Part shown: positions 4,121-41,773 of the stretch, in pieces
How positions within the stretch are numbered: the first letter of the stretch is position 1
Layout of the letters: every line of letters begins with the position of its first letter
Sequence record: PZ445554.1
Source: a phage
DNA length: 64,000 bases
Reading direction: 5' to 3' (one strand)
Made by a program: the position numbers and the translations under genes
The notes under the pieces: model-generated
The model's input: the letters and a program-made list of their open reading frames with translations, nothing else
The model's database searches: none
What the model was told of the DNA's origin: nothing

Positions 4121-4678
4121 TTAAATGGAAAGATACCATCCGCTGTAGTTGCTTTTTCTTACAACCTTACGAAGGTCTTCTCTATCACCGATGAACTTCG
4201 GAGTGTATTGGATGACACCTGGATGAATTTCTTTAGTGTTGAATATAATTATACAGTCAGCGACTTGATGATTTAGAATGGGCCCTAGATTTATTCCAGA
4301 ACCATATGGATACTCTCCGCTGCATCCTGTTGTCACCGAAATCCAACGTGAGTCAGTTTGATGTGTCTTAACTTCTACACGAAGCCCGCAGTATCTTGGA
4401 TGCGCCAATACATCCCATGCATATGTGTACGGATCATCGACATCTTCTTGACCTTTGTTAACATACCCGCTCAGCCAATCTGCTACAAAAAACTCTGCGT
4501 ACACAGCGATACGGCATCTTTCGATAACTTCTGCCTTATCCTGATTTGGGTTTTGTTTTAAAGAGTATCTTGCAGTATCAACAATTTTGACCTTCATTTC
4601 ACTAGTCAAGTCACTGTTCGATAGGGTAAATGTCGGAATCTGAAATAGTCTCTGTAACCCCGGATTCGTTTTCTGCAT
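4121..4678 (-). CDS. denB: Endonuclease IV DenB
   Basis: ORF track 185 aa (same length as T4 DenB); AAGGAAAG Shine-Dalgarno; adjacent to rIIB region as in T4. Confidence 0.7.
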   Translation of the reverse strand: MQKTNPGLQRLFQIPTFTLSNSDLTSEMKVKIVDTARYSLKQNPNQDKAEVIERCRIAVYAEFFVADWLSGYVNKGQEDVDDPYTYAWDVLAHPRYCGLRVEVKTHQTDSRWISVTTGCSGEYPYGSGINLGPILNHQVADCIIIFNTKEIHPGVIQYTPKFIGDREDLRKVVRKSNYSGWYLSI

Positions 4679-4940
4679 TTAAACTTTCCTTTTTACCACT
4701 AAGATAAGCGTTATACACTTTAAGAGTACCATAGTAAATTCGATCATTTTCATCTAAAGAATTACGATCAAGTTCATCGAGATTCTTTTTGTCCATGACT
4801 ATAACATCATTGCAGTAAAGAACTCCAAGTTTTTCATGCCCAAACTCGAATTTATTGCAGTACACAATATTAGCGTAATGATTACCATGTAGAGAAATTT
4901 CTTTTATGTCGGTGTCACCGATATTCATACAATAAATCAT
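4611..4940 (-). CDS. Hypothetical protein (109 aa)
   Basis: ORF track; ATG at 4938-4940 (rev); 3-prime end overlaps denB start by 68 nt. Confidence 0.5.
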   Translation of the reverse strand: MIYCMNIGDTDIKEISLHGNHYANIVYCNKFEFGHEKLGVLYCNDVIVMDKKNLDELDRNSLDENDRIYYGTLKVYNAYLSGKKESLNAENESGVTETISDSDIYPIEQ

Positions 4941-4957
4941 AATTTACCTTAAAACAA

Positions 4958-4973
4958 AAGGGCCGAAGCCCTT
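4958..4973 (-). terminator. UUCG-tetraloop hairpin (AAGGGC-CGAA-GCCCTT on plus strand)
   Basis: Inverted repeat with CGAA loop, read as C(UUCG)G in the minus-strand transcript. Confidence 0.5.
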
Positions 4974-4976
4974 ATT

Positions 4977-21745: not shown

Positions 21746-22263
21746 CAATAACCTCGGTCTTGACGAGCGAAATTTTCAGCATTTTTCAGATAATAAAGTT
21801 TAAAGATTTCTTCAGCTGACATTCCAAGAGCAATGAATTTATTCATGAAAAAGTGAAATTGGTCAATCAGTTCAAATTTAATTTCAAGCTGATCTTCGGG
21901 AGATAAATCTTGAATTTTCTTGGATTGCATTTCAGAATAACGTTTCTTCCAAGGTTTCCATACGGCAGAAGCTTCTTTTTCACCATTACTCATACCACCA
22001 AGAGAAGTATATAGCTCGCGAGTTTCATCTGCGATATAATCGTCTTGGTTTCGCAGCCAAGCAAGAACTTCTCCTGCAGTTTCAAGTGAATCAGGATGAC
22101 GATTTGTTTCTGGTTTATCATTAGCCAAACGAATCTGTAAATGCCGCTGCATATCAAGCATAACCTGCAGTGGGTCAATATTGTGCATAATATTCTCAGC
22201 ATATGCACGAGTTGCTTTATCAACACCTTCGATCAAATGAGCACATTCATTAAAGTGAGCCAT
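21745..22263 (-). CDS. 56: dCTPase-dUTPase gp56 (MazG-like)
   Basis: ORF track 21745..22371; start at internal ATG (MAHFNECAHLIEGVDKA) after AAAGGA, giving 172 aa as recalled for T4 gp56. Confidence 0.85.
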   Translation of the reverse strand: MAHFNECAHLIEGVDKATRAYAENIMHNIDPLQVMLDMQRHLQIRLANDKPETNRHPDSLETAGEVLAWLRNQDDYIADETRELYTSLGGMSNGEKEASAVWKPWKKRYSEMQSKKIQDLSPEDQLEIKFELIDQFHFFMNKFIALGMSAEEIFKLYYLKNAENFARQDRGY

Positions 22264-26390: not shown

Positions 26391-26735
26391 TTAAAAGAAT
26401 TTAAATTTTTTCTTTGACCTTTTATTAAATGCATCTTGTAGTTGCATTGTAATACATTTTTCTACATGAGGAGCTAACTCAGCTTTTCTTTCTTGGTCAA
26501 GAACAGCAAAGTCCATTACAACCTTTCCATCAACCCAATCCAGTTTAGTTACATACACTATATGTGTAGAACCATCTTCTAGTTTAATGACAATCTCCTG
26601 GATAACATTTTCCATAGCGGATTTAATTATCTTAAGAGACTCATTAAAAAGACGTTCTTTTCTTTCTTCTTCCCCCTCCGAAGAGGGGGATTCATCGATA
26701 ATTTCTAGATCTAAATCTAAATCATCTTTATTCAT
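26391..26735 (-). CDS. 40: gp40-like protein
   Basis: ORF track 26391..26753 (GTG); first in-frame ATG at 26735; position between uvsX and 41 as in T4; start uncertain. Confidence 0.55.
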   Translation of the reverse strand: MNKDDLDLDLEIIDESPSSEGEEERKERLFNESLKIIKSAMENVIQEIVIKLEDGSTHIVYVTKLDWVDGKVVMDFAVLDQERKAELAPHVEKCITMQLQDAFNKRSKKKFKFF

Positions 26736-27909
26736 TAAATTCTTCCATATCACTTAACTGTTCGAGGTCAGTTTCTAAATCAGCAGCTGATTTACTTTTA
26801 CTTTCTGGAGATTTAAATTTTTCAACCTTTGAGTTAATCAATTCATCAACTTCAGCTTCAACAATTTCATTACTATCAATAGCACCTAACTGATAAGCAC
26901 GTTTAATAGCATCTCGGAATGGTTGATGCTTAAATAAAGGACCCCAGAATGTAGTGCAATTGGTATCTTTTGCACGCCAAGATTTTTCTTCGCGAATCAT
27001 CTCGCCGGTTTCTTCATCAAGAAATTCACGAGCATACCAGCCATTTTTAGGTTTTACCACGAATCCTAATTCTAGAGCCATATCTAACAATCCAGAATAA
27101 GGATCGATACCACCGTCAAATTTAACATCAATAAAGAATTTACTTTTTTCTTTAACGGTACGAGATTTTTCTACATTTAGAACAAATTGATACCCCTGAA
27201 GATCGGAACCATCTTTAATCTGGCGCTTACCGATAATGAATACAGTATCAGCCGAATACATTACGCCTGTACCACCTGTCATCACGGTTTTACTAAACAT
27301 TTCAATTGTTTCAATTGTATGGTTAACCGCAACACATGGAATATTTTTAATGCTAAAATAAGGAGTAACAATACGGAATAATGACTTCAGTGATTTAGCA
27401 CGAGTCATATCTGCCACAGATTTTTCATTCAAGGCATCTTCAGTTTCTTTCTTGGAAGCCATATTACCAATTGAGTCGATGAATACAATAACTTTTTCAC
27501 CGCGCTCAATAGCTTCAAGCTGGTTCACCATATCAATTTTCAGCTGTTCAACTGACTGGATTGGCGTATGAATTACTCGTTCCGGGTCAACTCCCATGGA
27601 TCGCAAATAAGCTGGAGTAATACCAAATTCGCTATCATAGAATAGACAAACCGCGTCAGAATATTTGTTCAAATACGCTGCAACCATAGTCAAAGACATA
27701 TTTGATTTAAAGTGTTTAGAAGGACCTGCGAAAATAGTTAAACCAGACTGCATACCGCCATCAATCGCACCAGAAATAGCGATATTAAGCATTGGGATTT
27801 TTGTACGGATTACATCCTTTTCATTAAAGAATTTAGATGTAGTCAGTTCAGCAGTCATTTTAGAAGTGGAAGCTTTAATCAAACGGGATTTTAAATCTGC
27901 AATAGACAT
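26728..27909 (-). CDS. uvsX: UvsX recombinase (RecA-like)
   Basis: ORF track 393 aa; RecA-fold motifs; N-terminus M..DLKSRLIKASTSK as recalled for UvsX. Confidence 0.9.
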   Translation of the reverse strand: MSIADLKSRLIKASTSKMTAELTTSKFFNEKDVIRTKIPMLNIAISGAIDGGMQSGLTIFAGPSKHFKSNMSLTMVAAYLNKYSDAVCLFYDSEFGITPAYLRSMGVDPERVIHTPIQSVEQLKIDMVNQLEAIERGEKVIVFIDSIGNMASKKETEDALNEKSVADMTRAKSLKSLFRIVTPYFSIKNIPCVAVNHTIETIEMFSKTVMTGGTGVMYSADTVFIIGKRQIKDGSDLQGYQFVLNVEKSRTVKEKSKFFIDVKFDGGIDPYSGLLDMALELGFVVKPKNGWYAREFLDEETGEMIREEKSWRAKDTNCTTFWGPLFKHQPFRDAIKRAYQLGAIDSNEIVEAEVDELINSKVEKFKSPESKSKSAADLETDLEQLSDMEEFNE

Positions 27910-27986
27910 TCATTTTTTCCATAGGCATCATTATATTTTCCTCACTGGTTAAAGATAGAGTAATTATAACACAATAAATTTAGGCA

Positions 27987-28829
27987 TTAATCAACTGCTA
28001 TTGGATGAATAGCATTAAACTTATGAAATGCTTCTGATTTTTCTTTACGCGAAACACACATGCGAAGAACCTTTAGTGGTTCATCTTCTTCACCCAACGA
28101 TTTTCGTTTTTCAATATTAGAAGTTTTCCAACGAGCTTGCTCTGGAAACTCTCTATTGATTTGCTCAAGCGCTCTATTATGTTTAGAATTACTACGAATT
28201 GAACTGCACCCGCCAGGAGCTTGTGCTTTTCCAGATACAACCAGATATTTGAACAAGGCCAAATGCGGATAACCTTGATTAATTAAATTGAGAAATGCAT
28301 ACATATCTTCGCATAAATCAATTTTTCCATACCCAATTTGTTCTGTGGTAAGTTTTCCGAGGTCATACCATGTATTCGTGAATCCGTATGAATTTTCACG
28401 ATAATTACCCCAAGATGAAGTAATTTTAAAAATAGGTAGACGAGCATGGCCATGATAATACCCGCAATCCATGGCATCTTCAACGTATTGAATCAATTCA
28501 TAGAACTGTTCACGAGTCAATTGATTGACTTTATCTGCGCAGCGCCGATCATCTCTCTTTCGCATTGAACTCATACGAATAGTAGTATCATCGTCAATCA
28601 TCCAGATTCGTTGACCTGCATACATATCAGTAATTGCTTTACGAGTTCCAGCAATTCCGTTGACATCATCAGGAATAGTTATAATTTTAGCTCTAGACCC
28701 ATAGGCATCATAATAAGCTTTTTCTTCGTGTTCACGCACTACAATATGCGGTTCATAATCAGTCGGAAACATATCAAGGGCAGAAACTGCCCCTACACGT
28801 TGATAGCTTGGAATTACGAATTGAATCAT
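27987..28829 (-). CDS. Putative glycosyltransferase (DxD motif) at the beta-gt locus; candidate beta-glucosyl-HMC alpha-glucosyltransferase
   Basis: ORF track 27987..28835 (GTG); ATG at 28829 overlapping gene 42 stop (ATGA); IWMIDDDTT DxD motif; not similar to recalled T4 beta-gt. Confidence 0.6.
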   Translation of the reverse strand: MIQFVIPSYQRVGAVSALDMFPTDYEPHIVVREHEEKAYYDAYGSRAKIITIPDDVNGIAGTRKAITDMYAGQRIWMIDDDTTIRMSSMRKRDDRRCADKVNQLTREQFYELIQYVEDAMDCGYYHGHARLPIFKITSSWGNYRENSYGFTNTWYDLGKLTTEQIGYGKIDLCEDMYAFLNLINQGYPHLALFKYLVVSGKAQAPGGCSSIRSNSKHNRALEQINREFPEQARWKTSNIEKRKSLGEEDEPLKVLRMCVSRKEKSEAFHKFNAIHPIAVD

Positions 28830-29566
28830 TTCCACTCACCATTATAATCTTTTTTCACAATATGAGTTTCGCCAGTATTCCACCAATGATCAACCAAGTA
28901 AAAATGACGAGAATATACATGAAGACTTCCAACATTCCATATAATAGAACCTGCTTTATACTGACGAGTTGAATCGCCTGCATTCAAATCAGATACTAAT
29001 TTATCTAATACGTATTTTTGCCATGCATAATCATTACGGAATCCGAAGACCACATCATTTGAGCGCATGCTTACTACTGCATTGACTTTCTTATCACGAA
29101 TCAGGTACTGTACTGTATTAGTACACATGAAATCTGACATACCATCTTTATTGTAGTCAAATTGCATGGATGGACGAGTATAAATCATGATACCACGTCG
29201 AGAATCAGGATTTTGACCAAGTTCAGCTAAACACATATCATACTGAGCATAGTTATCTTCTGACCAGATAGCCCAACCATAATTCGAGTTAATTTCGCCT
29301 TTAGAAGATGCTACCTGCTGCCAAATCTTTGGTGTTTCACCTGGAATATCTTTAACAAACAAGCTCTTAGATTTATACCATTCAAGTTCACGCTGAATGT
29401 ATTCATCATTAAGAGCGCCAAAAATAAACGGTTCATCTGCTACAAATGATGCGCCAATAATTTCAATAGTTTTAACGCCAGTTTTATCAACTACGAAATC
29501 TTTTTCTTTTAATGCAAGCCCCAAATGAAGACGGATTTCTTCAACTGTCATAGAGTCACTAATCAT
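28826..29566 (-). CDS. 42: dCMP hydroxymethylase gp42
   Basis: ORF track 246 aa, same length as T4 gp42; thymidylate-synthase-like fold motifs. Confidence 0.9.
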   Translation of the reverse strand: MISDSMTVEEIRLHLGLALKEKDFVVDKTGVKTIEIIGASFVADEPFIFGALNDEYIQRELEWYKSKSLFVKDIPGETPKIWQQVASSKGEINSNYGWAIWSEDNYAQYDMCLAELGQNPDSRRGIMIYTRPSMQFDYNKDGMSDFMCTNTVQYLIRDKKVNAVVSMRSNDVVFGFRNDYAWQKYVLDKLVSDLNAGDSTRQYKAGSIIWNVGSLHVYSRHFYLVDHWWNTGETHIVKKDYNGEWK

Positions 29567-29573
29567 TTAAACC

Positions 29574-29723
29574 TCAATTGATACATTCATATTTAACTTG
29601 TAACAGTAATAAACCCCAACCTAAAATAATAGTTGGAATCATAAGAGGAACCGTTACACTATAGTATATACTTATTATAACCATCAAGATTAAAAGCAAC
29701 ACTGCTATAATTTTGCTTTTCAT
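29574..29723 (-). CDS. Small membrane protein (49 aa), not in ORF track
   Basis: ATGA overlap with imm stop; MKSKIIAVLLLILMVIISIYYSVTVPLMIP. Confidence 0.4.
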   Translation of the reverse strand: MKSKIIAVLLLILMVIISIYYSVTVPLMIPTIILGWGLLLLQVKYECIN

Positions 29724-29971
29724 TCCTTCTCTCTGATGATAATTACCTGATTTGGCTGTGCAGACTTTTTAGTTTCACCTGCAATTGACCAAATAAATGT
29801 AATAAACCAACCAATAATTGACCAGTTAAACAGTAAAGACGTGAAAAATATTCCTACTGTCGATTTTGACCCACGCATCAAGGCGATAAACCATGGAAGC
29901 ATGTATATAATAATAGCCAACACACCTGAAACTAAAACCATAAAAATTGAACCTGCTACTAAAGTTTCCAT
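29720..29971 (-). CDS. imm: Immunity to superinfection protein Imm
   Basis: ORF track 83 aa; two transmembrane segments; length and position match T4 Imm. Confidence 0.8.
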   Translation of the reverse strand: METLVAGSIFMVLVSGVLAIIIYMLPWFIALMRGSKSTVGIFFTSLLFNWSIIGWFITFIWSIAGETKKSAQPNQVIIIREKE

Positions 29972-29978
29972 GTTTTCC

Positions 29979-30359
29979 TCACTTAGTCAAATTTTTTACG
30001 CATGAATTATAAGAATTCACTACATACTCCATCGGAGCATTTTTACCGGTACGCCATTGGTAATTATTAGCCCAATTTGCCCAAATTTCAGCACAGTAGT
30101 TTTCAATTTTTTCTTCGCGTGTAATTACATCCGAATTACGATATGCTTGAGCAGATTCATCTGGACGAATAGCTTCGTCAAAATTCGCCTGCATTTGTTC
30201 TACTGTTTGCTTTGGAGCTTCTTTATAACACTTGACATTAGGATTATAAAACTTGCTTGAACAGTTTACAATTTTTCCTACATCAGACTGATTTACTACC
30301 GGTCCTTGAGCTACACAACCAGTAAGACCTAATGCAATAACCAAAATAGCGATTTTCAT
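29979..30359 (-). CDS. Putative lipoprotein (126 aa)
   Basis: ORF track 29979..30371 (TTG in leader); ATG at 30359 after GGAGAATGAA; lipobox LTGC. Confidence 0.55.
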   Translation of the reverse strand: MKIAILVIALGLTGCVAQGPVVNQSDVGKIVNCSSKFYNPNVKCYKEAPKQTVEQMQANFDEAIRPDESAQAYRNSDVITREEKIENYCAEIWANWANNYQWRTGKNAPMEYVVNSYNSCVKNLTK

Positions 30360-30393
30360 TTCATTCTCCAAATCCGTATCAGTTGATAGTTGT

Positions 30394-30423
30394 ATAGTAC
30401 CATGGAAGAACAGGGATGTAAAC
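30394..30423 (-). promoter_or_regulatory. T4-type early promoter with conserved leader
   Basis: Minus-strand GTTTACATCCCTGTTCTTCCATGGTACTATACAACTATCAACTGATACGGATTTGGAGAATG. Confidence 0.55.
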
Positions 30424-30511
30424 AGTTTTGTGAAAAAATTTTTAGTGAATTCAAAGGGTCCAGAATCATCTGTTTTTCATAAGTATAGATTTATATTACT
30501 TGTATGAAAAG

Positions 30512-30527
30512 GGGACCCGGAGGTCCC
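30512..30527 (-). terminator. Hairpin GGGACC-CGGA-GGTCCC after gene 43
   Basis: Perfect 6 bp GC-rich inverted repeat 14 nt downstream of gene 43 stop. Confidence 0.5.
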
Positions 30528-30540
30528 TAGATTTATTCTA

Positions 30541-33237
30541 TCAGCCAAACAGGAAGTCTAACGAAGCTTTTTCCTCATAGTCCATACCTGCCGATTCACA
30601 CATACCCGCAAGCGGTTTAACAAACGATTTTTGGAACAAAGTTGAGTAGTCAATCCAAGATAGTACATCAGAACGAATTTCTTTTGGAAGTTCTGTACCC
30701 GATGGCCAAGCAATGCACTTGTCACCAAATGGATTTCCTTCACGTAATGGAAGAACCATTACTTTATTTCCATCCAAAATTGGAGCTACACCTAGACCAC
30801 TAACAGCTCGACGATAAGTTAGCACACCGCGAATATGGAACGGGCATTTAAATCCTGGCCAACCTTTATCATCATATTTCGCTATATCGTTCGCAGTTTT
30901 TACTTCAGCAATAACTTTATAGTCGAGTTGACGATATTCTTTCTCGAAGTTCTTGTAATATTCTTGGACAGACTCTTCACCTTCCTGAAGAATACGACGA
31001 ATACTTTCTTCGAGAGCTTCTTGCACTGCTTTTGGTGTTGAACTCTGCTGAGTTTCCATACCCATGATTTTTAGATGCGGTTCAGCAAATCGCTTATCTT
31101 CCATATCATAAACGTTCAGAGCATAACGTTTTTTCGCTTTCCAAAATCCACCAACGCCCTTTGAACCAAGCGGAGGGCAAGAAATAGCTTCACGGTCCAT
31201 ATGCATCAGATGCTCGCGGTTATTCATATAATCACATAACTCACGATATGCAACATCAATCATAGGTTCCATCTTTTTCTTACCAAACTGATTCATAAAT
31301 TCAACTAAATCGTTCTGCTCTTTGAATCGGTCAAGACCAACTTTTTCAATAACTTTATCTACACAAACATATACCGAATCAGTATCACCTGCTGCGATGA
31401 AATCTTCACCATTAGTTCCGCATACTTTATTCAGATATTCATTAATTTTACGAGCAATCCACTGAATACCGACTTGGCCGAAAATTGTGATAGCAGTAGC
31501 ATTTCGCAAATCATAGTAACGGAAATGAATATTACCAAGAGCACCATAAAGACTGTTAATGAGAATTTTACGGTTCAGCTGATTTGTGTTAGCAAGTGTA
31601 GCTGCTTTTTCACATTCCTCGATCAGACTATTGAGAACAGATTCAGTATAATTCGATAGTTCATTTAAGAAATCATCACTGAACTTAACATATCGTTCAA
31701 CTTCTGGTTTAGTTGAACAAGACCCTGCGCCTTTCATAATAATCTTTTTAATAGCTTCGGCATTCATTTCTTCAGCGAACATTTTCTTTTTCCAGTCTTT
31801 ACGCTGGAAAAATACTTTAGCGATTTCCTTTGGAATGATACCTTCTTGATGCTTATCATACATCCATCCATTCGGAGAACAAGAATATTCATCACTCGGT
31901 TTAGGAGCTGTTCCTGCGATATATTCATGAATTGGATGAACTTTAAACTGCCCACGAATAGTCTCAGGACTAATGTTAACCTGACGAATAATGCTCGGAT
32001 ACAGAGACGTCAAGTCAAAACTCATAATATATCGACGAGCAATTGGTTTAGGTTCAAACACAAATGCACCCGGAAAACTCTGTTTAACGTGCGAACCTTG
32101 TTGAGGAATAACCTTGTGTTCACCTTTCAATGAGTTAAAAATAATAGCATCCCAAGTTTTAATAGGACTCATTACACCAGAAAAAGGCATTTTAGCGTAA
32201 TAAGACATACTTAAAACTAGATCGATAAACCCGCGAATTTTATCAATTGCTTGAACTGATTCTACGTCAATGATGTTATAACTAATGTATCGTTGATGAT
32301 TAGTCTCACGAAGTTTATTAATAGGACCGTCGTACGGTAATTTACCTTTTTTGGTTTCATGCTGAGCAACTGATTCCAAAGAGAATGACGGCAAATTAGT
32401 AAATGCGAATTTCTTATACAAATCTAAATAATCAAGAATAGATACGCCATCAATAGAATAAATTTCTTTGCTACCGTACATATTTTGAATTAGTTTAGAT
32501 TTTACTCGACCGATTGGAGAGAAGCGTTTCATACTGCGTTCACCTAGAATCATTTTAACACGATTCATGATATATGGAACGTCAAATCCCTCAATATTCC
32601 AACCAGTAAAAATAGCAGGTCGTTTCTGTTCCCAGAGATTGATATATTCCATGAGCATATCACGCTCATTATCAAATGGCATATAAATTACTCGGTCAAG
32701 AATTTCTTGAGGAACTTCATCACCACCTTCACAGTCAAGCTTAGCAGCTAACTTTGCATCCCATTTTGATACTGAACCGTACATTGAATTCAAAAGGTCG
32801 AAAACATAAAAACGATCGTCAATTGAATCGTAATGAGTGATAGCATCAATTTCATATTCTGCTTTCATTGGGTCAGGAAATTTATCACCAGTAACCTCAA
32901 TGTCACAGTTAGCTACACGAACAAATTTTCGGTCATAAACAATTTCTGAACCATACGTATCACTGATATAAGCGAGTTTAAAATCGTTCATACCGAGAGC
33001 TTCGAGACCGATGTCTTCCATTCGCTTCATCCAATCTCGAGCATCTTTCATTGATGGAAATTTTTGAGGAGCGCAGTTTTTACCATAGATGTCTTTGTAT
33101 TTTGACTCTTCCTTACAATGCCTAAACATAGTTGGAAGATATTCTACTTCACGAGTACGTTCCTTTCCGTTTTCATCAATATAACGTTCAACAATGTTAT
33201 TTCCGACTGTTTCGATAGAGATATAAAATTCTTTCAT
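30541..33237 (-). CDS. 43: DNA polymerase gp43 (family B, with 3-5 exonuclease)
   Basis: ORF track 898 aa; exo motif CDIEVTG, polymerase motif AAGDTDSVYV; length equals T4 gp43. Confidence 0.95.
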   Translation of the reverse strand: MKEFYISIETVGNNIVERYIDENGKERTREVEYLPTMFRHCKEESKYKDIYGKNCAPQKFPSMKDARDWMKRMEDIGLEALGMNDFKLAYISDTYGSEIVYDRKFVRVANCDIEVTGDKFPDPMKAEYEIDAITHYDSIDDRFYVFDLLNSMYGSVSKWDAKLAAKLDCEGGDEVPQEILDRVIYMPFDNERDMLMEYINLWEQKRPAIFTGWNIEGFDVPYIMNRVKMILGERSMKRFSPIGRVKSKLIQNMYGSKEIYSIDGVSILDYLDLYKKFAFTNLPSFSLESVAQHETKKGKLPYDGPINKLRETNHQRYISYNIIDVESVQAIDKIRGFIDLVLSMSYYAKMPFSGVMSPIKTWDAIIFNSLKGEHKVIPQQGSHVKQSFPGAFVFEPKPIARRYIMSFDLTSLYPSIIRQVNISPETIRGQFKVHPIHEYIAGTAPKPSDEYSCSPNGWMYDKHQEGIIPKEIAKVFFQRKDWKKKMFAEEMNAEAIKKIIMKGAGSCSTKPEVERYVKFSDDFLNELSNYTESVLNSLIEECEKAATLANTNQLNRKILINSLYGALGNIHFRYYDLRNATAITIFGQVGIQWIARKINEYLNKVCGTNGEDFIAAGDTDSVYVCVDKVIEKVGLDRFKEQNDLVEFMNQFGKKKMEPMIDVAYRELCDYMNNREHLMHMDREAISCPPLGSKGVGGFWKAKKRYALNVYDMEDKRFAEPHLKIMGMETQQSSTPKAVQEALEESIRRILQEGEESVQEYYKNFEKEYRQLDYKVIAEVKTANDIAKYDDKGWPGFKCPFHIRGVLTYRRAVSGLGVAPILDGNKVMVLPLREGNPFGDKCIAWPSGTELPKEIRSDVLSWIDYSTLFQKSFVKPLAGMCESAGMDYEEKASLDFLFG

Positions 33238-38777: not shown

Positions 38778-39793
38778 TGTGTTGCCTCTACATATAGCTG
38801 ATTTGCATATTGAATAAGTGCTTCACGATCAGAATCAGTGATGTCTGGAATTGCATTAATATACTCTTCCATTAATGTCTGAAGCGATTGAACTTCAACT
38901 TCTTCACTGTCATCTGACTCGACAGAGTTATCAATCTTTGACACAACTCGTAATGAATGCACAACTTTTTCTAGTTCAGATTCGAATTTCGTCAGATTTT
39001 TGTCTACTTCAGTTACTATAACACGTACTGATAGATTTGTAAAATCTTTATAGTCAATTTTTCCTTTAAATGGATAATGAATTCTACGATGCCAGGTAGT
39101 ATTGTTTGGAATAAATTCCATTCGTTCTGTTTCTGTATCAAACATCCAGAACCCACGAGGGTCATTCTCGTCACCTGCTGTTAGTGTCCATGGTGTCCCA
39201 ATATATCTGACGTTTGCAGCCTCAGAAATAGTATGGAAGTGACCAGACCACACTTCTTTATAAGTCTTAAGGAAATCAGGTTCAAGACCGTGAGATTTCA
39301 TTCCTTTATAAAAATAAAATCCATTCAGTTCCCAGTGACCAACACAAAAAGAAGCAGATGAAGTTTTGATGTGTTCAAGAATTTCACCAGTATTTTCTTC
39401 GCACATCCAAGGAATTAAATCAATCAAACACCCGTCAAAATCTACTGTAGTAGGCTTATCATATACTTTAACATTAGGATATTTAGCCAAAAGCTCAGTA
39501 GAGGCATTTGGATGCATTACATTTTTGTAGTGGAGATCGTGATTTCCTACAATAGTATGTAATGTGATTCCAGCGTCATCAAGCATTTGAACTATTTCAC
39601 GGGCAAACTCCATAGTTTTATGTGTGATTGCTTTTCGCACATCAAAAATATCACCATATTGAATCCATACAGTAATTCCATTTTTCTTAGAATATTCTAT
39701 CGCTTGCTTAATTCCATCAATTTGAATACCGCGAATCCACTCATCATCAGCTTTAACGCCTAAATGCCAATCACCCAAGTTTAGTATTTTCAT
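38774..39793 (-). CDS. 47: Recombination nuclease subunit gp47 (Mre11/SbcD-like)
   Basis: ORF track 339 aa; phosphoesterase motifs LGDWHLG, GNHD. Confidence 0.9.
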   Translation of the reverse strand: MKILNLGDWHLGVKADDEWIRGIQIDGIKQAIEYSKKNGITVWIQYGDIFDVRKAITHKTMEFAREIVQMLDDAGITLHTIVGNHDLHYKNVMHPNASTELLAKYPNVKVYDKPTTVDFDGCLIDLIPWMCEENTGEILEHIKTSSASFCVGHWELNGFYFYKGMKSHGLEPDFLKTYKEVWSGHFHTISEAANVRYIGTPWTLTAGDENDPRGFWMFDTETERMEFIPNNTTWHRRIHYPFKGKIDYKDFTNLSVRVIVTEVDKNLTKFESELEKVVHSLRVVSKIDNSVESDDSEEVEVQSLQTLMEEYINAIPDITDSDREALIQYANQLYVEATQ

Positions 39794-40394
39794 GGTGTCT
39801 TTTCCATCCTAATTTAGCTGCTTTTGAAACCAGTTCTTTAATTTTTCCTTTTGTCCATTCAGGACCAGGAGGTTCATGACATAACATTTGCTTAACTCCG
39901 TTATTATACCATTTTTTACCTTTATTATGTGATGAAGCTTTAAATTTATTTGACCTTCCTTTTGCATAACCTTCTGGAATATAAGGCAAAAAGGCAGATT
40001 TTCCTGTTAATGGATCATGTGAATGTATATTTCCTTTACAATTATGAGAACCATATAATGGATGATTTTGTCCTTTATTATCTCTTCCAAATGAACCTTT
40101 TGGAGCAGCATATGACATATTAAAGAATAATGGATTTTTAACTGCATCATGCAATCGTTGATAATATAACTCGCATTTAATAGCTTCTTCACGCGTATCA
40201 AATTCAGCTAAAATGCATGAATCAAATAAGTGAGGATTATCTGAAAGCTCTTTATTATAAATTTTCTTATACTTTTTAGATAAAACTGAACCATGATATC
40301 CAGCTAAATGCCTATCTAAAGACGTAGATCCAATATAAAAAGGAGGAAGTTTATCTCCACTATATATTGTTAAATAAGTTATATATTTTTTCAT
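39771..40394 (-). CDS. GIY-YIG family homing endonuclease-like protein (207 aa)
   Basis: ORF track; N-terminus YLTIYSGDKLPPFYIGST (GIY...YIG) with downstream conserved Glu; basic C-terminal region; overlaps gene 47 start by 23 nt. Confidence 0.65.
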   Translation of the reverse strand: MKKYITYLTIYSGDKLPPFYIGSTSLDRHLAGYHGSVLSKKYKKIYNKELSDNPHLFDSCILAEFDTREEAIKCELYYQRLHDAVKNPLFFNMSYAAPKGSFGRDNKGQNHPLYGSHNCKGNIHSHDPLTGKSAFLPYIPEGYAKGRSNKFKASSHNKGKKWYNNGVKQMLCHEPPGPEWTKGKIKELVSKAAKLGWKRHHENTKLG

Positions 40395-40555: not shown

Positions 40556-40573
40556 AAGGGCCGAAGCCCTTTA
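40556..40573 (-). terminator. UUCG-tetraloop hairpin overlapping a-gt stop
   Basis: AAAGGGCCGAAGCCCTTT perfect inverted repeat. Confidence 0.5.
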
Positions 40574-41773
40574 TTTTGTAATAATGTCAAACTGTTCTTT
40601 AAAGCAGAAGCTTGAATCTTGATGCTGATACAAAAATTCATATGCTTTTTCTCGCTCACGGTCATAAAGAGCTCGGTCAGATGACAGTTCTTTAATACGT
40701 TCAAATGTTGATTCCATGTCATTTTCATCAAACCAAATGATACCGCTATCATGCGAGGTCAAAGGAGTATTATCAACACGGAATTTTAAATTTTCGCCAG
40801 TAGATTTCCAAAATACCGGAATTGTTCCACATGCACCAAGCTCGAGATGAGTATATTCTAAAGAACGTTGTAGATATTTTTTATCCAACTTACTCAACTG
40901 ATAACCAAAACCGGATTTACTCATGCGTTCAAGCATTTCGCTATTTACATAACGGTCAAGAATTTGCGTTGGCAAATTAGGAGCAATTTTAATTTGGTCT
41001 ACTTGATGAAGACGATAATACTCGTATGGAATTCCTTTTTCTTTAATAGGAATGAACGCTGGAGAACGTTCCAGACCTTCCATAATAGTACTTAGTCCTG
41101 CAGGTTTAAGATGTTTTTCGTGAAAATCAAACATCTGATAAAAACCTTTCCATGTAGTCGTACGACCAATCCAACGATTGATATTCATGTTAATTTCAGA
41201 AACATCTTTCCAGTAGGTTGACCGAACCTTCGCAATATCCATAGGAGGCTGAAAGTTATATACTGTCGGCGCTTCTTCAATATCATCAAATAAAGAAACT
41301 GTTTCAGGATACCACTCTTTCATCAGAACTTTATTAAAATCACCATTATCAGAATGACTAAAAATAACATCAGCTCGACGAACAGTTTCTTCTAATCCCA
41401 AATTTCGGCGCAAAGAAAGAGAAGAGTGGTCATGTTGATAAACTACAACACGAACCGAAGGTTTAATGTTATCAATAATTTTTTTATAGTTATTAATAGT
41501 GTCTTCTTCAACTGAAGTAGCAGGAACTGAATTGATAATTAGAATATCACAATCATTTACCAGCTTAAGTGTTTTATCGTATTCTTTTGCCAATAAAACC
41601 GGAATTGAAAATGATTTATAATCATGTGCACAGTTACGAGTAAATGATTTATCTTTAGCATAAACCAAAGTTACTTCATGACCATTTTTAATAAACCAAT
41701 CACGTTGCTCAAGAGAAAATTTAGTTACACCACAACCTTCAAGACCCCGAGCCATAAAAATACATACTTTCAT
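40571..41773 (-). CDS. a-gt: Alpha-glucosyltransferase
   Basis: ORF track 400 aa; N-terminus M.ICIFMARGLEGCGVTKFSLEQRDWFIKNGHEV matches recalled T4 a-gt. Confidence 0.85.
   Translation of the reverse strand: MKVCIFMARGLEGCGVTKFSLEQRDWFIKNGHEVTLVYAKDKSFTRNCAHDYKSFSIPVLLAKEYDKTLKLVNDCDILIINSVPATSVEEDTINNYKKIIDNIKPSVRVVVYQHDHSSLSLRRNLGLEETVRRADVIFSHSDNGDFNKVLMKEWYPETVSLFDDIEEAPTVYNFQPPMDIAKVRSTYWKDVSEINMNINRWIGRTTTWKGFYQMFDFHEKHLKPAGLSTIMEGLERSPAFIPIKEKGIPYEYYRLHQVDQIKIAPNLPTQILDRYVNSEMLERMSKSGFGYQLSKLDKKYLQRSLEYTHLELGACGTIPVFWKSTGENLKFRVDNTPLTSHDSGIIWFDENDMESTFERIKELSSDRALYDREREKAYEFLYQHQDSSFCFKEQFDIITK

Follow-up and report, generated by a model that had tools for sequence, protein, structure and literature searches.

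The activity of beta-glucosyl-HMC-alpha-glucosyltransferase has been described in the 1960s, and its gene has been cloned from the phages T2 and T6 in 1993. The fold of the family, its distribution and its deletion phenotype have followed in publications from 2024 to 2026. By modelling, the T6 enzyme has been assigned to the GT-A glycosyltransferases as a sister to GT2 (PMC13216743). Upon deletion of the transferase gene in T6, alpha-glucosyl-hmC is all that remains, and the sensitivity to Brig1 increases (PMC11078745), and the DNA of such a deletion phage becomes a substrate of BapA (10.64898/2026.02.25.707755). Gentiobiosyl-hmC has been reported at 5% for T2 and at 72% for T6 (PMC11078745, 10.64898/2026.02.25.707755). 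For those Tequatrovirus phages of the Durham collection that carry alpha-GT together with a TET-associated glycosyltransferase (TAGT) and are devoid of beta-GT, HPLC/MS has revealed hmdC, alpha-glc-mdC and alpha-gentiobiosyl-mdC and no beta-glc-mdC (PMC13390438). The pairing of alpha-GT and beta-GT found in T4 is rare, being present in 6 of 753 genomes (PMC13216743), and a 2026 NAR paper has described alpha-GT plus TAGT as the common state and T4 as the exception.

Here we have analysed a locus of this type in the window, i.e., the whole 64-kb stretch of DNA under study, which derives from a genome of ~168 kb. Taken as a whole, the evidence is best explained by the phage's second DNA glucosyltransferase, a gentiobiosyl-hmC-forming orthologue of the T2 and T6 enzymes, and we regard this reading as very probable.

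The transferase gene and its neighbourhood

The open reading frame comprises 280 codons at 27987..28829 (minus strand) and is intact and full length according to the ORF list of the window. Its product matches PF20691 (TAGT) from end to end with 40.1 bits against a gathering cutoff of 27.5, the alignment covering residues 3-207 of the protein and positions 2-205 of the 205 profile positions, and it matches PHROG 842 (beta-glucosyl-HMC-alpha-glucosyltransferase) at E = 2.8e-88. Identity to the T2 beta-alpha-GT amounts to 99%, with three differences in 280 aa (R11H, A98V, P251S; here and below the residue of the window protein is given first), and identity to T6 to 98%, with four substitutions (Y40N, D55G, A98V, R106H), on top of which the T6 record MH550421 contains an amber codon 10. 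In the genome records of both T2 and T6, the transferase gene occupies the identical slot between gene 42 and uvsX. An earlier note on this DNA had recognized the arrangement of T2 and T6, and the high identities together with the shared slot bear this out. The gene, known as ba-gt, ggt, g-gt or TAGT, is the orthologue of the T2/T6 beta-glucosyl-HMC-alpha-glucosyltransferase, a known family in a known place that has already been described in the literature. From the near-identity to the T6 enzyme we infer that the protein would transfer glucose from UDP-glucose in beta-1,6-linkage onto alpha-glucosyl-hmC.

Regarding this specificity, TAGT homologs also occur paired with beta-GT and, in 288 of 753 genomes, as solitary TAGTs (PMC13216743). 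Therefore, the TAGT family as a whole is not tied to one acceptor, and a member of other specificity could use bare hmC directly as its acceptor or attach a sugar different from glucose. These paired and solitary cases are, however, distant homologs, whereas the product of the T2 and T6 enzymes, to which the window protein is 98-99% identical, is known. An activity on bare hmC is further opposed by the ~25-33% of hmC that stays bare in phages with a near-identical enzyme (PMC13390438). A deviating specificity is therefore considered very improbable, and the formation of gentiobiosyl-hmC is retained as the predicted function.

The program-made ORF list has placed the start at a GTG at 28835, which results in 282 aa, and the ATG at 28829 yields 280 aa. 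The ATG is the better start because of its spacing to the Shine-Dalgarno sequence GGTGAG (28835..28840, minus strand), which has been read out five bases upstream and is kept in T2 and T6, because of its overlap with gene 42, whose TGA stop shares the sequence ATGA with the start codon as it does in T2 and T6, and because the T2 records annotate the identical 843-nt CDS for the transferase gene. The GTG has been rejected as a start, as it falls inside the Shine-Dalgarno motif and the CDS of the T2 records begins at the ATG. The ATGA overlap suggests translational coupling to gene 42. At 28775..28795 (minus strand, codons 12-18), a 9-bp stem-loop rich in GC, TAGGGGCAGTTTCTGCCCTTG, with a T-rich run behind it, has been flagged as terminator-like. 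It is located within the CDS, is found with the same sequence in T2 and T6, and could either form a structure where translation is initiated or be a product of chance. A scan of positions 26500..30600 for sigma-70 promoters and terminators has returned 18 sites compared to 15.5 +/- 3.4 in shuffled sequence and hence no excess.

On its upstream side the gene is adjoined by gene 42 (28826..29566, minus strand) for the dCMP hydroxymethylase that provides the hmC precursor, a thymidylate-synthase-family protein identified by PF00303 with 58 bits and by synteny with gene 42 of T4, T2 and T6. Downstream, uvsX (26728..27909, minus strand) has been identified by PF21134 at 132.8 bits, and only 77 bases (27910..27986) separate it from the transferase gene. 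In T4, segA is situated between the slot and uvsX; a tblastn search with T4 segA has found no homolog within the 64-kb window, with no hit better than E = 1.4. The alpha-gt gene (40571..41773, minus strand) encodes a DNA alpha-glucosyltransferase of 400 aa, which makes the alpha-glucosyl-hmC acceptor; it matches PF11440 with 787.6 bits, shares 91.5% identity with T4 alpha-gt and is 100% identical to the copies of several phages. A homolog of the gene 56 dCTPase/dCDPase, which keeps unmodified C out of the phage DNA, has been located at 21748..22263 (minus strand) by tblastn with the protein of phage Geo annotated as 'dCTP pyrophosphatase', with 98.3% identity over 172 aa. Taking gene 42, gene 56, alpha-gt and the second transferase together, the set for gentiobiosyl-hmC is therefore complete. 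The 280-aa reading frame, its coordinates, its motif and its neighbours had all been named in the earlier note and agree with the ORF list and the sequence read-out; the flanking genes 42 and uvsX are supported by profile matches as well, and the alpha-gt gene, which the note had taken to be intact, is indeed so. Between gene 47 and alpha-gt lies a 207-aa ORF (39771..40394, minus strand), which reaches 20.6 bits with the GIY-YIG profile PF01541, below the cutoff of 22.6, and probably encodes a seg-type homing endonuclease; phage Geo possesses just a 141-nt ORF at this position.

Predicted fold and candidate catalytic residues

The codons of IWMIDDDTT (residues 75-83) are found at 28581..28607 (minus strand), and both the family alignment and the structure model point to D79-D81 as the DxD motif, putatively for metal and UDP binding. 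In the alignment, which comprises the window protein and nine full-length homologs from a large protein database, D79, D80 and D81 are kept by every one of the 10 members, even at an identity as low as 32%. The database has yielded 11 clusters only, and the resulting alignment is shallow and the structure model of moderate quality, with a mean pLDDT of 71.4 and a pTM of 0.72. This model is well determined over its N-terminal 90 residues, and pLDDT values drop below 50 for residues 125-150 and 204-211. The DDD sequence follows the strand 74-77, which corresponds to the canonical DxD position of GT-A enzymes. Searching the PDB by sequence for a solved relative has produced a best E of 0.46, with unrelated proteins. 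As no solved relative is detectable, the fold assignment rests on the model, which supports a predicted GT-A glycosyltransferase fold and does not display the two-Rossmann-domain architecture of GT-B. A glycosyltransferase fold, for which the earlier note had proposed structure prediction as a check, is thus what the model returns.

By analogy to other GT-A enzymes, D79-D80-D81 would bind a divalent metal together with the diphosphate of UDP. With UDP-alpha-glucose as the donor and a beta-linked product, the reaction would be inverting, as in GT2 enzymes, and the catalytic base is probably an acidic residue. A candidate is provided by the sequence C-E-D at residues 173-175, which is positioned at the start of a helix and conserved in the family alignment, E174 being nearly invariant and D175 invariant; it may be likened to the TED motif of GT2 synthases.

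Expected modification pattern and its proportions

With alpha-gt and the second transferase present and no beta-gt homolog in the 64-kb window, the virion DNA is expected to contain unmodified hmC, alpha-glucosyl-hmC and gentiobiosyl-hmC and to be free of beta-glucosyl-hmC, and by analogy to the measured relatives, bare hmC should account for roughly a quarter to a third. The earlier note had stated that the gene predicts the hmC glycosylation pattern. This holds in qualitative terms, as the HPLC/MS data of the Durham phages demonstrate, and fails in quantitative terms: the genes of T2 and T6 are near-identical, yet their gentiobiosyl-hmC contents are 5% and 72%. Consequently, the gene gives the pattern qualitatively and not the proportions.

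The protein comparison has included six measured Durham phages, namely TB37, Solly, EH2, Geo, EL and BGP. From the enzyme of TB37, Solly and EH2, for which ~2/3 alpha-gentiobiosyl-mdC, ~1/3 hmdC and traces of alpha-glc-mdC have been measured (PMC13390438), the window protein differs by A98V only; these three genes share the synteny of the window gene and show 21-27 mostly silent nucleotide differences to it. Geo, EL and BGP, with hmC, glucosylated and gentiobiosylated forms measured at ~1:2:2, differ at eight residues (I50V, M89I, R95K, C97R, A98V, V101I, A202S, Q203H). R11H and P251S are common to all three independent T2 records. Across the aligned family, R11 does not vary and P251 hardly does, and the window protein agrees with the consensus at both positions; R11 is placed just after the PSY loop.

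The proportions could nevertheless be those of T2, in that the same enzyme would extend only a small percentage of the alpha-glucosyl-hmC residues, leaving DNA that is essentially alpha-glucosylated with ~25% bare hmC. The window protein is 99% identical to that of T2, with three differences against four to five to T6, and T2 DNA contains 5% gentiobiosyl-hmC (PMC11078745). Against this stands that R11H and P251S, which are found in 3/3 T2 records and affect positions conserved in the family, are missing from the window protein, and that a single residue separates the window protein from the enzyme of TB37, Solly and EH2 at ~2/3 gentiobiosyl (PMC13390438). We judge T2-like proportions to be rather unlikely. 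From the A98V-only distance to the phages with ~2/3 gentiobiosyl-mdC and the consensus residues R11 and P251, a T6-like level follows as more likely than a T2-like one, and T6-like proportions with gentiobiosyl-hmC as the major form appear to be the better guess. The correlation extends over a handful of phages, and expression level, timing or other genes could equally determine the proportions.

R11H and P251S are candidates to explain the low gentiobiosyl content of T2 relative to T6; the literature search has found no paper that ties the two substitutions to this low level. One may tentatively go further and postulate that the extent of second glucosylation in T-even phages can be read from a few substitutions in the enzyme, in which case the window would encode a fully active enzyme of the T6 type, although we hold this generalization to be doubtful. 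If it were true, the 5% of T2 would reflect a hypomorphic enzyme caused by R11H, beside the nucleotide-binding PSY loop, together with P251S, and the intermediate 1:2:2 pattern of Geo, EL and BGP would stem from their eight-residue haplotype.

The residue that sets the window protein apart from all of these is Ala98 (codon 98, 28536..28538, minus strand). It is shared with Shigella phage SfPhi01, whose protein is 100% identical. In the comparison with T2, T6 and the Durham phages, all nine sequences have V98; in the wider family the position is variable, with V, P, L, S and T occurring. An intact yet inactive gene, i.e., a copy recently disabled for instance via A98, has been considered because A98 is seen in none of the nine relatives compared and because lesions are known from sequenced stocks, namely the amber codon 10 of MH550421 and the DDD motif of AP018814, which is short of one Asp. 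The reading frame is, however, full length, all invariant or nearly invariant family positions checked are kept, and both the variability of position 98 and the identical SfPhi01 protein speak against a disabling effect. A disabled copy is thus highly unlikely, and an active second glucosyltransferase remains the preferred reading. As for the T6 records themselves, the TAG at codon 10 of MH550421 is found at 4951-4953 (minus strand), and the annotated CDS begins at M20 and is thereby deprived of the first beta-strand; in AP018814 (CDS 4135-4974) one GAT is gone from the GATGATGAT run, which converts DDD to DD within the DxD motif. Since T6 is the textbook phage of high gentiobiosyl content, these lesions may have arisen in the particular stocks; the repeat may alternatively result from slippage or sequencing error. 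The DNA of the MH550421 and AP018814 stocks may differ from what the literature assumes.

In the proposed pathway, gp42 and gp56 would lead to replicated DNA with 5-hydroxymethylcytosine, alpha-GT would attach an alpha-linked glucose to most of the hmC, and the window enzyme, as a GT2-like GT-A transferase, would take a further glucose from UDP-glucose and join it by a beta-1,6-linkage to the first, yielding gentiobiosyl-hmC. The second sugar would hide alpha-glucosyl-hmC from defences that read this base, e.g., the Brig1 glycosylase, and would give no protection from GmrSD-type enzymes. For annotators, the gene indicates what the phage DNA contains and allows for a prediction of which host defences see the phage: gentiobiosyl DNA would offer less of a target to Brig1 and other glycosylases of alpha-glucosyl-hmC and would still be cut by GmrSD/BrxU-type enzymes, and bare hmC would be open to Brig3-type glycosylases. 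The use lies in the choice of therapeutic phages; no new biology is involved.

Comparison with T4 and other known glucosyltransferases

BLASTP of the window protein against T4 beta-gt (NC_000866) has given a best E of 4.2 and no meaningful alignment, in line with the lack of resemblance noticed before, and tblastn with T4 beta-gt has found no homolog within the 64-kb window (best E = 1.4). Among 50,697 phage records, tblastn has detected a TAGT homolog in 689, 472 of them at an identity of at least 95%; at an identity of at least 90%, ~470 records with TAGT compare to ~29 with a T4-type beta-gt. The content of the slot is therefore no unusual replacement; T4-like coliphages normally have this arrangement, and it is T4 that is unusual. 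In OR539218.1 (KMB26), NC_024121.1 (Serratia PS2) and NC_055739.1 (myPSH1140), a beta-gt homolog 49-55% identical to that of T4 directly adjoins TAGT; apart from KMB26, this neighbourhood is seen in Enterobacter and Serratia phages. As some relatives carry beta-gt beside TAGT, the presence of one gene at the slot does not strictly preclude the other. Whether TAGTs paired with beta-GT extend a beta-linked first glucose is a question raised in PMC13216743.

T4 beta-gt occupies the same syntenic slot after gene 42, likewise uses UDP-glucose and forms a beta-linkage on modified phage DNA. It differs by its GT-B fold (PF09198), in contrast to the GT-A fold predicted here, and by its acceptor, which is hmC itself, whereas enzymes of the window type act on the glucose of alpha-glucosyl-hmC. 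The inverting GT-A enzymes of GT2 (BcsA, TarP, SpsA) share only 6-15% identity with the window protein, which differs from them by having a sugar on DNA as its acceptor and by lacking a membrane domain. With the ba-gt of T2 and T6, the window gene has in common the length of 280 aa, the locus, the DDD motif, the ATGA overlap and the companion alpha-gt. It deviates by A98 in place of the V of the compared relatives and is free of R11H and P251S of T2 and of Y40N, D55G and R106H of T6, and nothing in these sequence differences points to another function.
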